Assembly (NCBI GenBank): GCA_949296355.1
Contig: CASFPS010000002.1
Location: forward strand, 10,781-74,780
Direction: 5' to 3'
Source of the DNA: an uncultured bacterium
GTDB lineage: Bacteria > Cyanobacteriota > Vampirovibrionia > Gastranaerophilales > Gastranaerophilaceae
DNA length: 64,000 nt
Shown here: one piece after another, positions 7,376-12,727 of the stretch
Numbering within the stretch: position 1 is the stretch's first letter
Layout: every line of letters starts with the position of its first letter
Position numbers and translations under genes: made by a program
The notes under the pieces: model-generated
What the model was told of the DNA's origin: nothing
The model's input: the letters and a program-made list of their open reading frames with translations, nothing else
Database searches by the model: none

Positions 7376-7403
7376 TTGAAAAATAAAAAAAATAGGTTAA
7401 AAT
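7376..7403 (+). promoter_or_regulatory. Sigma-70-type promoter TTGAAA-N16-TAAAAT
   Basis: TTGAAA at 7376-7381 and TAAAAT at 7398-7403. It faces the hairpin terminator at 7468-7503, with no ORF in between. Confidence 0.4.
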
Positions 7404-7409
7404 AAGAAT

Positions 7410-7503
7410 ACAGGCAAGGGCAGCGTTAGTGCCCGAGCCCATGTCCTAACTAAAGGACTTTTAGGGTAAGAACTATTATTAGCATTAATAATAGTTCTTT
7501 TTC
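7410..7503 (+). ncRNA. Candidate ~95-nt small RNA (promoter to terminator), unknown family
   Basis: Three predicted hairpins (GGGCA/TGCCC, GTCC/GGAC, and a 14-bp AAGAACTATTATTA stem) followed by a T-run. Antisense to a 23-codon ORF. Confidence 0.3.
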
Positions 7504-7521
7504 GCTAATTTTGACTATCAT
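7450..7521 (-). CDS. Candidate 23-aa hydrophobic peptide upstream of mnmG
   Basis: AAGGAGG 5 nt before ATG 7521. Encodes MIVKISEKELLLMLIIVLTLKVL. Below the ORF-track cutoff. Confidence 0.25.
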   Translation of the reverse strand: MIVKISEKELLLMLIIVLTLKVL

Positions 7522-7665
7522 AAAACCTCCTTTCTTTAGCGAAAATTAGCGTTTTAAATAATCAAAATTTTTAGCCCGTATTCTTTTTTATCTTAATATA
7601 AAACGGAAAATATATCAATTAAAAAATATGTTTTTATACCTGTAATTATATTGTATAATTCTGGT

Positions 7666-8373
7666 ATGAAATATCTCAGGTCATTAATTGCTGTATTTTG
7701 TTTTGGAATATTTGGCACAGGTTCAATTATTCTAAACTTTCTCCTGTTTCCTTTTATTAAAAATAATAAAGAGTTGTGTTCGGATATTATTCATGTAGTC
7801 TGGAAATTTTTTCTGTATCTGATGATGTTTTTTGGACTTTTCAGACTTGATATCAAAAATCTCGGAAAAATTGAAAATAAAATTATTGCAGCAACCCACC
7901 CGAGTTTTATTGATATAGTAATTTTAATCGGGCTTATTCCGAGAACAACCTGCGTTGTAAAAGAGGCGCTTGCGCATAATCCGATTTTGAAACACATTAT
8001 CGGAAGCATTTTTATCACAAATGACGTTGATATTGAGGTTTTGAAAGCAGATTCTAAAAAGATGCTTGATAAAGGGTTTAATTTTGTTGTATTTCCGGCA
8101 GGAAGAAGACATAGAAAAGATGAGCATTTGAAGATGAAAAAAGGCGCCGCTTTAATTGCTCTGAATGCCGGTAAGAACATTGTTCCGGTTAAGATTACTA
8201 ATGACGGAGATTTTTTGTATATCCACGAACCTTTTTATGCGGTAAATAGCAGGTGTATAACTTTTGAACTCGAACAAATGCCTGAAATTAATATAAATGA
8301 TTATTCAAATGATACGGAAATATCTGCAAAACACAAAATTACAAAACAACTTGAAGCAGAATTATATAATTGA
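7666..8373 (+). CDS. Lysophospholipid/1-acyl-glycerol-3-phosphate acyltransferase family protein (ApeD-like)
   Basis: HX4D box (THPSFIDIV) and FPAGRR box. ATG 7666 preferred over the TTG at 7651. Confidence 0.75.
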   Translation: MKYLRSLIAVFCFGIFGTGSIILNFLLFPFIKNNKELCSDIIHVVWKFFLYLMMFFGLFRLDIKNLGKIENKIIAATHPSFIDIVILIGLIPRTTCVVKEALAHNPILKHIIGSIFITNDVDIEVLKADSKKMLDKGFNFVVFPAGRRHRKDEHLKMKKGAALIALNAGKNIVPVKITNDGDFLYIHEPFYAVNSRCITFELEQMPEININDYSNDTEISAKHKITKQLEAELYN

Positions 8374-8482
8374 ACATTTAAAATAAAATATCAAGGGGCA
8401 AACCTGTATCTTTTTAAGAAACGTCAGCACAACAAAATACTTTAGCCATAGGCTGATAGTTTCAAGGAAAGGAGGGCAGATT

Positions 8483-8563
8483 ATGGAAAATATCAATTTA
8501 TGTCTTATGATTTTATTTTTGATTTTATTCATAATAAAAAATGACACCCATCAATTAAGATAG
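8483..8563 (+). CDS. 26-aa hydrophobic peptide, candidate type I toxin (copy 1)
   Basis: AGGAGG 7 nt upstream of ATG. Encodes MENINLCLMILFLILFIIKNDTHQLR. The paralog keeps the same length and hydrophobic core. Confidence 0.5.
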   Translation: MENINLCLMILFLILFIIKNDTHQLR

Positions 8564-8614
8564 ATGTCACTTTAGCCATTTACAGGTTACGGCAGTAGCA
8601 GCTGCCGCCCCGAT
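8534..8614 (-). ncRNA. Candidate antisense antitoxin RNA (copy 1), ~80 nt
   Basis: Driven by TTGAAA-N16-TATAAT. Ends in the hairpin UGACAUCUAUC-uuaauu-GAUGGGUGUCA plus UUUUUU. G.U wobbles occur only in the minus sense. Confidence 0.45.
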
Positions 8615-8620
8615 ATTTTT

Positions 8621-8648
8621 ATTATAACCTATTTTGCGGATTTTTCAA
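8621..8648 (-). promoter_or_regulatory. Sigma-70 promoter TTGAAA-N16-TATAAT for antisense RNA (copy 1)
   Basis: -35 at 8648-8643 and -10 at 8626-8621, read on the minus strand. Confidence 0.55.
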
Positions 8649-8666
8649 CCGCAATAAGTAACTTAA

Positions 8667-8695
8667 TTGATTTAAACTTTTAATTTCAATAAAAT
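8667..8695 (+). promoter_or_regulatory. Sigma-70 promoter TTGATT-N17-TAAAAT for toxin mRNA (copy 2)
   Basis: -35 at 8667-8672 and -10 at 8690-8695. Homology between the two modules begins about 6 nt downstream, at the expected TSS. Confidence 0.55.
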
Positions 8696-8810
8696 AAGAA
8701 TTGAACATTCAAAATAAAATATCAAGGGGCAAACCTGTATTTCTAAAGAACTTCGGCACAACAGATATACTTCGATTTCGGTCGATAGTTCCGAAAGAAA
8801 GGAGGTCATT

Positions 8811-8891
8811 ATGGAGAATATCAATTTAACGTTAGCGTTGATTTTATTGATTTTATTCATAATAAAAAGTAGCACTTACCCGAAAAGATAA
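8811..8891 (+). CDS. 26-aa hydrophobic peptide, candidate type I toxin (copy 2)
   Basis: GGAGG 5 nt upstream of ATG. Encodes MENINLTLALILLILFIIKSSTYPKR. Confidence 0.5.
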   Translation: MENINLTLALILLILFIIKSSTYPKR

Positions 8892-8944
8892 GTGCCACTT
8901 CGATTTCTTAAACAGGTTACGGCAGTAGCAGCTGCCGCCCCGAT
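8863..8944 (-). ncRNA. Candidate antisense antitoxin RNA (copy 2), ~80 nt
   Basis: Promoter at 8978-8951. Terminator is a 12-bp stem (GUGGCACUUAUC/GGUAAGUGCUAC) with two wobble pairs in the minus sense only, then UUUUU. Confidence 0.45.
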
Positions 8945-8950
8945 ATTTTT

Positions 8951-8978
8951 ATTATAACCTATTTTGCGGATTTTTCAA
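8951..8978 (-). promoter_or_regulatory. Sigma-70 promoter TTGAAA-N16-TATAAT for antisense RNA (copy 2)
   Basis: Identical to the copy 1 promoter. Confidence 0.55.
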
Positions 8979-9032
8979 TCTTTTGATAAACAACTTGAAG
9001 AATATTTGTATAGTTTATGATATAATATCACT

Positions 9033-9290
9033 ATGAACAGAAAAGAAGAAATTAAAAAATTAATTATTGAGTCGTTAGCGCTGGAAGAGATTACACCCGA
9101 GGATATTAAGGATGACGAGCCTTTGTTTAACGAGGGTTTAGGGCTTGATTCTATTGACGCGCTTGAACTCGGTATGGCTATCAAGCGTAAATACAACATT
9201 TCAATGGAAGAGGATAAAGATGTAAATAAAAAGCATTTTTATTCAGTGAATACTTTGAGCGAATTTGTGGAGTCGAAAATCAATGGCTGA
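9033..9290 (+). CDS. Acyl carrier protein (ApeE-like)
   Basis: 85 aa, phosphopantetheine site LGLDSIDALEL. Confidence 0.85.
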   Translation: MNRKEEIKKLIIESLALEEITPEDIKDDEPLFNEGLGLDSIDALELGMAIKRKYNISMEEDKDVNKKHFYSVNTLSEFVESKING

Positions 9291-11657: not shown

Positions 11658-11779
11658 ATATTAAAGAGTGACGGGTGAAAAGGCTGGCTGTAACCCGAAG
11701 CTTACCCCCTCCCTAACCCTCCCCGTTGGAGAGGGAACGCGCGCTGATGTTCAATTGGAGTAAGGTATACTTTTTTAAT

Positions 11780-11895
11780 GTTAAAGAGATTCTTCACCCC
11801 TGAATTGTTTCGGGTTCAGAATGACGGCAAATTTGTAGGTTTACTTTCCAAAGTGCCGTCATTCAGAGGGCGTCAGCCCGATGAATCCCTTTAAC
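11780..11895. repeat. MITE-like palindromic element, copy a (116 bp)
   Basis: Terminal inverted repeats GTTAAAGAGATTCTTC...GATGAATCCCTTTAAC. Inner hairpin TCAGAATGACGGCA...TGCCGTCATTCAGA. Confidence 0.85.
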
Positions 11896-11926
11896 TTTGG
11901 AAAAATCTTCTATTCACAATTCACCA

Positions 11927-12096
11927 GTTAAAGAGATTCTTCATCCCTGAATTGCTGTTGGGTTCAGAATGACGGCATACTTGGTGTTTGACCTGCCAGC
12001 CCGATATATTTACGCCTGAAAATGACGGCAAGCTTGTAGGTTTACTTTCCAAAGTGCCGTCATTCAGAGGGCGTAAGCCCGATGAATCCCTTTAAC
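11927..12096. repeat. MITE-like element, copy b (longer, nested)
   Basis: Same termini as copy a, with an extra internal half-element. Confidence 0.8.
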
Positions 12097-12118
12097 TTTT
12101 TTATAATAAAATTATTAT

Positions 12119-12406
12119 ATGAAAGTTGGTTATGTTTATATAATGACAAATAAAATTAACACGGTATTATATACGGGCGTTACATCTAATTTAAGTAAAA
12201 GAATTTATGAACATAAAAATAAGTTTGTTGGTGGTTTTACTAAACAATATAACCTGATAAAGCTTGTATATTATGAAATAGCTCCTTCTATAGAATCCGC
12301 AATCGAACGGGAAAAGCAGATAAAGGGAAAGAGCAGAGCGTATAAAGAAAACCTTATTAATACATTTAATCCTGAATGGCGGGATTTATATGAAGATATC
12401 TTGTGA
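12119..12406 (+). CDS. GIY-YIG nuclease family protein (small, stand-alone)
   Basis: YVYIMTNKINTVLYTGVTSNLSKRIYEHK...REKQIKG, 95 aa. Confidence 0.85.
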   Translation: MKVGYVYIMTNKINTVLYTGVTSNLSKRIYEHKNKFVGGFTKQYNLIKLVYYEIAPSIESAIEREKQIKGKSRAYKENLINTFNPEWRDLYEDIL

Positions 12407-12409
12407 AAA

Positions 12410-12526
12410 GTTAAAGAGATTCTTCACCCCTGAATTGTTGTCGGGTTCAGAATGACGGCAAATTTGTAGGTTTACTTTCCAAAGTGCCGTCATTCAGAGG
12501 GCGTAAGCCCGAAGAATCTCTGTAAC
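12410..12526. repeat. MITE-like element, copy c
   Basis: Near-identical to copy a. Termini GTTAAAGAGATTCTTC...GAAGAATCTCTGTAAC form a better inverted repeat. Confidence 0.85.
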
Positions 12527-12557
12527 TTTTGTAAAATTTTCTATTCACAATTCACCT

Positions 12558-12727
12558 GTTAAGGAGATTCTTCGCCCCTGAATTGTTGTCGGGTTCTGAA
12601 TGACGGTAAGCTTGTCGTTTGACCTACTAACCCAAACATTTACCCCCTCCCTAACCCTCCCCGTTGGAGAGGGGACGCGCTTGTGTCGCCCAATTAGTGC
12701 TGCGGTAAATCTTCGATTTACCGCATT
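12558..12727. repeat. MITE-like element copy d fused to CCCTAACCCTCCCCGTTGGAGAGGG and GCGGTAAATC hairpin modules
   Basis: Shares its 5' half with copies a-c. CCCTCCCTAACCCTCCCCGTTGGAGAGGG also occurs at 11708-11744. Confidence 0.75.

Follow-up and report, generated by a model that had tools for sequence, protein, structure and literature searches.

Type I toxin-antitoxin loci are recognised by two sequence features: an open reading frame (ORF) of fewer than 60 amino acids (aa) that encodes a hydrophobic peptide and has its own ribosome-binding site (RBS), and a gene for an antisense small RNA (sRNA) complementary to the toxin mRNA; on over-expression such a peptide is toxic, and the sRNA keeps it from being made. 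In Fst/RNA II, the par system of Enterococcus faecalis plasmid pAD1, and in SprA1/SprA1AS of S. aureus, the antisense RNA is located at the 3′ side and makes its functional contact outside the overlap (PMC8594479, PMC7472228). The poorly conserved direct repeats DRa and DRb of par have been proposed to prevent cross-talk between co-resident systems, and Fst-type peptides combine a hydrophobic domain containing a PXXXG(C) motif with a charged tail (PMC7472228). In BsrG/SR4, the antitoxin promotes decay and, at a distance, tightens the helix that sequesters the Shine-Dalgarno sequence (SD) (PMC3834814, PMC8594479). For hok, long-distance pairing of the 5′ and 3′ ends together with RBS sequestration results in a stable, translationally inert mRNA (Franch et al. 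1997, as cited in PMC8594479), and for aapA1/IsoA1 of Helicobacter pylori the same closure with an inert full-length mRNA is reported (PMC6733600). The tisB target of IstR-1 is a single-stranded ribosome standby site (PMC4147584). Here, we analysed two paralogous small modules in a 64,000-nucleotide (nt) stretch of DNA, hereafter the window, from contig CASFPS010000002.1 of an uncultured member of the family Gastranaerophilaceae. Our comparative sequence analysis leads us to regard each module as probably a self-contained type I toxin-antitoxin-like unit belonging to a previously undescribed family with a hybrid architecture.

The modules are located between an acyltransferase gene (7651-8373), their left neighbour, and two acyl-carrier-protein (ACP) genes, which follow downstream on the same strand from position 9033. 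Each module spans about 270-280 bp, and their pairwise alignment yields 85% identity with zero indels within the ORF. A sequence-only reading of the window had described, in both modules, a 26-codon ORF behind a strong SD, a minus-strand TTGAAA-N16-TATAAT promoter, an 11-nt direct repeat and mutually complementary 5′ and 3′ segments, and had interpreted the ensemble as a type I toxin-antitoxin locus. All of these features were found where they had been placed: both peptides and the SD AAAGGAGG were located, both promoters are present with 11/12 matches each, the repeat is exact in both modules and differs between them at 7/11 positions, and each complementary segment is exact and has just two occurrences in the window, with 0 expected by chance. 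Searches with the arms, the repeat and an sRNA model did not find a third family copy in the 64-kb window. Relatives were collected in two scans. The genome scan, performed on one genome per species with a degenerate-codon pattern that additionally required Leu6, Leu8 and FIIK, led to 12 loci, while the metagenome scan required the SD and the first five codons and gained many gut-derived loci among chance hits. After duplicate removal, 30 distinct modules from 11 species genomes and gut metagenomes were available, and the family-wide counts below refer to this sample unless stated otherwise. Four more tandem copies, overlooked by the ORF patterns, were recovered with a covariance model of the sRNA only. 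With this model, all family loci score 38-92 bits, and nothing with E < 0.03 was detected among about 100 unrelated loci.

In module 1, the ORF at 8483..8563 of the plus strand encodes MENINLCLMILFLILFIIKNDTHQLR and is preceded by the SD at 8468..8475; in module 2, the ORF at 8811..8891 encodes MENINLTLALILLILFIIKSSTYPKR behind the same SD at 8798..8805. The ORF comprises 26 codons in 28/30 modules, and AAAGGAGG stands 5-8 nt before it in 28/30. The stop codon is fixed in position and variable in identity (TAA, TAG or TGA), synonymous variation occurs at Leu8 (TTA/CTT/CTA) and Leu6 (TTG/TTA/CTT), one family member carries an in-frame 3-nt deletion, and the alternative frames are closed in 28/28 and 24/28 cases. 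The peptides are hydrophobic at positions 6-18, carry a basic or polar tail and are predicted to form one hydrophobic helix. Copies recovered through the sRNA model are free of the bias of the search patterns, since they were found via the sRNA alone; three of these four have an intact 26-codon ORF whose N-terminus has diverged, namely MNDININLLILFLIIFIIKNDTQLKR at two loci and MDKFNISLLLIFLILFVLKNGSHFNK at one. The ORF conservation in relatives on which the sequence-only reading had made its case depend was thus observed, as the 26 codons, the SD and the hydrophobic core are kept family-wide, also in the finds made through the sRNA alone. This comparative evidence marks the 26-codon ORF as a translated gene, and its product is a putative membrane toxin. 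The first type I feature, a hydrophobic peptide ORF of fewer than 60 aa with its own RBS, is present. A variant ORF was noticed on two contigs of one metagenome-assembled genome (L013 861-1160 and L014 7094-7393), which carry an identical module with identical flanks: here, a mutated stop codon leads to a 30-codon ORF ending within the 3′ repeat.

On the minus strand, an antisense sRNA of about 81-83 nt is predicted for module 1 (8534..8614; 92.2 bits with the sRNA covariance model) and one of about 83-85 nt for module 2 (8862..8944; 92.1 bits). The module 1 sRNA would start from the promoter TTGAAA-N16-TATAAT at 8621..8648 and consist of a 5′ hairpin, an anti-repeat linker and an intrinsic terminator (8573..8538) located in toxin codons 19-26. 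In module 2, the same promoter motif is found at 8951..8978 and the terminator at 8901..8866. Across the family, a TTGAAA-N16/17-TATAAT promoter is present in 22/30 modules. In the window, two minus-strand terminators were called at the modules compared to 0.5 in shuffles, and the predicted sRNA folds score z = -6.9 and -6.3 against shuffled sequences. Covariation was measured on a 16-sequence alignment, with column shuffles and slid partners serving as controls. The structure, composed of the 5′ hairpin with an extension, the linker and the terminator, is 89% paired with compensatory changes in 14/24 pairs, and its covariation score of 0.404 exceeds those of the column shuffles (0.226; 0/500) and of slid partners (at most 0.144). 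The earlier claim that the terminator stem is good only in the minus sense, through G.U wobbles, holds in 30/30 modules: in the minus sense, about 80 G.U cells stand against 1 A.C cell across the family, and the energy is -19.0 kcal/mol compared to -9.9 kcal/mol for the plus sense, every module (30/30) being stabler as the minus-sense RNA. The hairpin is hence predicted not to be a bidirectional terminator, and since it is stable solely in the minus sense, the toxin mRNA must read through it to reach its own 3′ arm. Taken together, the comparative evidence shows a structured minus-strand RNA with a predicted promoter and terminator of its own, which is probably transcribed. With its promoter, covarying structure and strand-specific terminator, it represents the second type I feature, an antisense sRNA gene complementary to the putative toxin mRNA.

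The direct repeat appears to provide a second pairing site for this sRNA. Its 5′ copy in module 1, ACTTTAGCCAT at 8439..8449, is the predicted second sRNA target, and the complement of the 3′ copy (8569..8579) falls within the single-stranded linker of the sRNA; module 2 carries ACTTCGATTTC at 8769..8779 and its 3′ copy at 8897..8907. Family-wide, the 5′ repeat is 11-12 nt long and occupies positions -45 to -34 from the start codon, about 20 nt upstream of the SD. For the covariation test, each 5′ window was concatenated with the reverse-complemented 3′ window of the same module and pairs were counted per column. All 21 distinct sequences form the six core pairs (100%), each of which shows 2-9 double changes, and pairing predominates at four flanking pairs. 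The resulting score of 0.486 compares to 0.245 in shuffles (0/500) and to at most 0.148 when windows were slid. Among the 30 modules, 15 different 3′ 11-mers were counted, and the tandem extras add CTTGACTTC and TCTGACTTTC, bringing the number of classes to at least 17. Where the 5′ and 3′ cores differ (L011, L012, L022, L062, L073, L093 and L108b), a G or U in the 5′ copy stands against an A or C in the 3′ copy, the sole direction predicted to still give a G.U pair with the sRNA; L103 is the lone C.A case among the repeat differences. All of the tandem pairs (5/5) carry unlike repeat classes. Calculated sRNA-to-5′ untranslated region (UTR) duplexes range from -17.9 to -25.2 kcal/mol for cognate and from -10.6 to -18.2 kcal/mol for non-cognate combinations, the cognate one being stronger in 7/8 cases. 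The two repeat copies thus co-vary across 17 or more classes, their differences being compatible with G.U pairing, as the sequence-only reading had predicted for an antisense RNA that pairs with both sites, and this covariation shows selection for what is most plausibly sRNA pairing with a 5′-UTR site displayed in a loop. The repeat is not a target-site duplication, an origin excluded by the homology of the sequence outside the repeats across loci. One statistic and one candidate contact were discarded during the analysis: the 'longest wobble-tolerant run' statistic (7.8 in shuffles vs 11.0 observed) discriminated poorly because T-rich sequence yields long chance runs, and an extra sRNA contact near the start codon, suggested by duplexfold for module 1, was not conserved across classes.

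A third set of covarying elements concerns the predicted mRNA. In module 1, the presumed mRNA 5′ end is formed by the fold-back 5′ arm (GGGGC + AACCTGT; 8395..8407), followed by a U-rich tract (8410..8415) whose predicted pairing partner is the SD region and which may act as an anti-SD, and by a stem-loop, P2 (8419..8462), with the conserved CACAACA and the 5′ repeat in its loop. The fold-back 3′ arm (ACAGGTT ... GCCCC; 8582..8611) encloses the hairpin CGGCAG..CTGCCG (8590-8607). The arms of module 2 are located at 8726..8738 and, again with a hairpin, at 8912..8941. The 5′ arm lies in an exact stretch (8388-8408 and 8719-8739), and the ends pair in the minimum free energy fold of both mRNAs (z = -4.9/-6.1). 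Across the family, the fold-back consists of two helices flanking a covarying hairpin, that is, a three-way junction. The classes of its arms include GGGGC/GCCCC, AGGGT/ACCCT, AGGGC/GCCCT and GGAGC/GCTCC as well as AACCTGT/ACAGGTT, GATACTC/GAGTATC, GATGCTC/GAGCATC and GTCTGTT/AACAGAC. Double changes were found in 10/12 pairs in anchored windows, and the arms pair better with their own partners than with swapped ones (-15.6 vs -10.2 and -10.3 vs -6.3 kcal/mol), so that the fold-back first noticed as complementarity of two segments covaries as well. RNAalifold, applied to the full-length MAFFT alignment, overlooked the fold-back and paired GGG with CCC inside the ORF instead; because register shifts caused this failure, anchored arms were used. 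Covariation extends to the P2 stem (alignment columns 42-51 with 78-88), where 10-12 of 29 sequences show GC/AU swaps; the stem closes a loop of ~22 nt that holds CACAACA and the 5′ repeat. CACAACA itself is nearly invariant and stands directly 5′ of the variable repeat (8429-8435 and 8759-8765; alignment columns 52-58); one possible role is that of a CA-rich standby or enhancer element for ribosomes.

According to a partition function calculated for the 30 predicted mRNAs (218-240 nt), the mean unpaired probability is 0.40 overall; it falls to 0.18 at the SD and 0.04 at the AUG and rises to 0.75 at the 5′ repeat. The start codon is paired with codons 16-17 in an invariant helix, and two diverged copies suggest compensation in it. 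This comparative evidence shows selection for a predicted closed mRNA fold that would sequester the translation start. At the 5′ end, a -10-like box (TAAAAT, GAAAAT, GATAAT or TATAAT) ends 7-14 nt before GGGG in family members; in module 1, one or more weak candidate boxes TAAAAT at 8379..8389 may belong to the toxin mRNA promoter. The promoter scan did not call the -10-like box of the toxin mRNA, and no plus-strand terminator was called at the modules.

Eight of the 12 genome-scan loci are labelled Gastranaerophilales, Melainabacteria or 'Vampirovibrio' and the other four appear under generic names; so far, the family has been observed in Gastranaerophilales (Melainabacteria) from animal and human guts and nowhere else. 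Modules occupy more than 20 unrelated intergenic sites in either orientation relative to their neighbours, which are housekeeping genes, including those for a PALP enzyme, FabF, a radical-SAM activase, a TPR protein, an MFS transporter, DXS, the Der GTPase, trigger factor, an HD-GYP protein and an amylase. Mobile-element genes near modules were not found among the contexts examined. At the site in the window, same-species strains (contigs with an identical ACP protein) have one or two modules, and a related contig, L004, carries the ACP operon without a module and with a different upstream gene. The fourth copy recovered through the sRNA model (L022 6174-6256, 76.5 bits) is an orphan sRNA gene whose tandem partner is an intact module; of its own toxin ORF, no more than the final ~11 codons are left, and the 5′ half of the ORF is replaced by about 170 nt of unrelated sequence. 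The occurrence of zero, one or two modules per site, the many contexts and the orphan sRNA constitute the behaviour of a selfish element. In single-module strains, the body of module 1 is joined straight to the downstream flank of module 2 (window 8612-8700 compared to L001-L010), which is consistent with deletion or duplication via recombination between the identical 3′ shells of tandem copies (ACAGGTT...TTTTTCAA, 67 nt). The inter-module spacer differs among strains by an 18-nt indel.

Could the peptide simply be a small membrane protein that does no harm, such as an accessory subunit or a regulator of a membrane complex, with a cis-antisense RNA adjusting how much of it is made and no toxin-antitoxin pair involved? 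Many bacterial one-helix peptides of 20-30 residues are non-toxic, the toxicity of the present peptide is putative, and the housekeeping neighbourhood and the lack of mobile-element genes nearby would suit such a role. We nevertheless consider it improbable, albeit worth serious attention. A subunit or regulator is hard to reconcile with the lack of a conserved partner gene across the more than 20 unrelated contexts, the presence or absence of copies between strains of one species, tandem copies with mutually exclusive address repeats, the orphan sRNA beside a decayed ORF and the heavily sequestered translation start; together, such traits are typical of type I toxin loci, not of housekeeping subunits.

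The toxin-antitoxin reading has weak points of its own, and these have to be set against the evidence presented above. The hydrophobic stretch is short (13-15 residues), and the conservation of the SD and codons 1-5 (in the genome scan also of Leu6, Leu8 and FIIK) is partly by construction because the search patterns demanded them. The percentages paired in the repeat and the fold-back are inflated, since the register was set by each sequence's own best match or fold; moreover, 6/20 distinct fold-backs could not be anchored, and the anchors are the sequences' own folds. With a weak or unclear toxin-mRNA promoter and no plus-strand terminator called, both mRNA ends had to be inferred. Direct occlusion of the RBS as in par is not evident, as the 5′ site lies ~20 nt upstream of the SD. 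Finally, transcription, toxicity and repression are all things that we infer. On balance, the toxin-antitoxin interpretation that was initially put forward is supported by the ORF conservation, the covariation of the repeat and the fold-back and the strand-specific terminator.

A multicopy unit of about 270 bp that is inserted at many intergenic sites, varies among strains and contains a covarying inverted repeat might also be taken for a non-autonomous element resembling a miniature inverted-repeat transposable element (MITE). The fold-back would then represent its terminal inverted repeats, an impression strengthened by the outermost boundaries TTGAAAAT ... ATTTTCAA, which are likewise inverted, and the ORF, the repeats and the signals of an antisense RNA would be coincidental. 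Such an origin is very unlikely, because the covarying inverted repeat is internal with the conserved sRNA promoter outside of it, no flanking target-site duplication was found in 20 loci, the plus-sense helix contains 25 G.U compared to 2 A.C cells (8 vs 1 in anchored windows), the ORF is conserved at the amino-acid level, and neither the minus-sense-only terminator nor the covarying direct repeat would have a role in transposition. The modules may also move, which is compatible with the evidence against a MITE.

Among described systems, the organisation of the modules, as deduced from their sequences, is closest to Fst/RNA II and SprA1/SprA1AS without their being members of the Fst family. 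Convergent promoters and an antitoxin encoded 3′ of the toxin gene are common to both, and so is a regulatory contact at a second site in the 5′ region of the mRNA that arises from direct repeats transcribed in opposite directions. As these shared points are hallmarks of par (PMC7472228) and the best weak Rfam match in the window region is EF0408_EF0409 (E = 0.15), one might think of a true Fst/RNA II member that has diverged past recognition. This is scarcely to be expected, given that the match reaches 15.3 bits against a threshold of 440 bits, no Pro or Gly occurs in the helix of any member, and the peptides lack PXXXG as well as any match to an Fst model, Pfam or NCBIfam. In addition, the par terminator is shared and bidirectional, whereas the one observed here is minus-sense-specific; DRa and DRb of par cover the SD and the start codon, whereas a single repeat away from both is found here; and the mRNA 5′ end pairs with the 3′ end in place of the local upstream helix of par. 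The sRNA also overlaps the last 7-8 codons of the ORF, unlike in Fst/RNA II (PMC8594479).

Other systems share individual traits. In BsrG/SR4 and TxpA/RatA of Bacillus subtilis, the antisense RNA likewise overlaps the toxin mRNA at its 3′ end and reaches into the end of the ORF, but sequence and family searches (Pfam, NCBIfam, Rfam) revealed no match to them, and they contain neither a repeat-based second pairing site nor a 5′-3′ panhandle. BsrG/TxpA-type toxins are also longer (38-59 aa). With hok/Sok of plasmid R1 and aapA1/IsoA1, the modules have the 5′-3′ fold-back principle and the sequestered RBS in common. In those systems, however, the antisense RNA pairs at the 5′ side, while it covers the 3′ arm of the fold-back here, and hok depends on the mok frame and on trimming at the 3′ end, while the modules have no known activating processing step. 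Membership in hok/Sok fails, as there is no Pfam match of the peptide, no match to Sok in Rfam, and the sRNA is located at the 3′ end. In tisB/IstR-1 and zorO/OrzO of E. coli, the antitoxin also pairs with the 5′ UTR far ahead of an RBS that is buried in structure, but its gene is divergent from the toxin gene and has no overlap with it. By analogy with tisB, we hypothesise that the exposed loop with CACAACA and the repeat could act as a standby site. The comparison of the repeat with par/fst and of the fold-back with hok/aapA1, drawn in the sequence-only reading, is thus apt for the mode of working and fails as a statement of family membership.

The same reading was not aware of a described type I family that contains this peptide, and the database searches agree. 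No Rfam family reached its gathering score in the whole window, and relaxed filters over 8300-9050 gave only insignificant matches. The peptides had no match in Pfam (E <= 1), NCBIfam (E <= 10), PADLOC or PHROGs, where the best hit was a PHROG of unknown function (E = 0.064). An exact look-up of six peptides in a collection of 15 billion proteins returned only the 30-aa read-through variant of L013/L014, which has no name there; since the 26-residue peptides are absent from protein databases, genome annotation misses them. The family was not found in viral contigs, plasmids or phages (including by distant blastn), and in the literature we found nothing linking Melainabacteria or Gastranaerophilales to type I toxin-antitoxin systems or antisense RNA. 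The remaining alternative, a cis-acting leader or attenuator of the downstream ACP lipid operon, is suggested by the position of the modules directly upstream of the ACP genes on the same strand in this window and is hardly credible, since modules also stand beside threonine synthase-like, FabF, Der GTPase, trigger factor, DXS and amylase genes in either orientation, and the same operon occurs in one- and two-module strains and, in L004, without a module.

Under the toxin-antitoxin interpretation, the following mode of action can be proposed. The plus strand would give rise to a ~226-nt mRNA for the 26-residue single-helix peptide, whose ends would pair to form a closed 'panhandle'. With the RBS and the start codon buried in local helices, the full-length mRNA should be stable and poorly translated. 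From the minus strand, the near-consensus promoter would drive synthesis of the ~80-nt sRNA, ending inside the last toxin codons. This sRNA would be fully complementary to the 3′ end of the mRNA, and its linker could also pair with the loop-exposed 5′ repeat. Bound at the 5′ repeat, it might block ribosome loading by a standby-site or structure-locking effect, while decay of the RNase III type would be directed to the mRNA by the ~80-bp duplex at its 3′ end. As an address, the variable repeat would insulate co-resident copies from each other. Following this argumentation, we tentatively suggest, as a possibility to which we give less than even weight, that the repeat is a fast-evolving 'address label' of which at least 17 mutually incompatible versions exist in one order, that the modules are orthogonal, self-addressed killer/antidote units under diversifying selection, and that the sRNA acts via a loop-displayed standby site on a closed-panhandle mRNA.

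Further elements were noticed in the surroundings of the two modules. To the left of the acyltransferase gene, a third module with a similar design and a different peptide occupies window positions 7376-7625. It contains a plus-strand promoter, TTGAAA-N16-TAAAAT (7376-7403), 82% identical over 38 nt to the sRNA promoter of the family, a predicted ~95-nt RNA (7411-7508) with three hairpins (z = -5.9), and a convergent minus-strand ORF of 23 codons (7521..7450) encoding MIVKISEKELLLMLIIVLTLKVL behind the SD GAAAGGAGG. Other strains carry a second allele (MIVKISARELVLLIILILIIEAL), in which substitutions cluster in the overlap and are compensatory in both sRNA hairpins, and the ends of the mRNA of this third module (AAGAATACGGGC / GCCC..GTATTCTT) could fold back. 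Just upstream of the ACP gene lies an insertion hot spot, of which window positions ~8995-9017 represent the empty site. Depending on the strain, inserts (L006 3585-3990, L009 3097-3990 and L010 3923-3964) contain one or two small HTH_3 (Xre-type) genes or a 42-nt remnant; they are flanked by a duplicated 23-nt GAAGAATATTTGTATAGTTTATG and have GGCTGGGCGGTTGGGCATACCTG-like ends, so that the insert looks like a small integrating cassette. At 11700-12700, a 95-aa GIY-YIG ORF (12119-12406) is embedded in 3-4 copies of a 100-190-nt repeat that holds a long palindrome (TCAGAATGACGGCA...TGCCGTCATTCAGA), and the presence of this gene varies among strains.

The modules would add a type I family from uncultured, non-photosynthetic gut relatives of cyanobacteria. 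They mix traits known so far from different families, namely a repeat contact as in par, a 3′ overlap as in BsrG/TxpA and a panhandle as in hok, and would thereby be useful for studying the evolution of antisense specificity and of mRNA inertness. The comparative evidence is unusually complete: covariation delimits the putative sRNA, the mRNA architecture and the intermolecular contact, and it supplies natural 'compensatory mutants' of the second pairing site as well as orthogonal pairs. If the address-label hypothesis is true, the combination of standby loop and panhandle would be undescribed in type I systems and the cyanobacterial lineage would gain its first such system, and orthogonal units could serve strain-level exclusion, the addiction of chromosomal regions or abortive phage defence.

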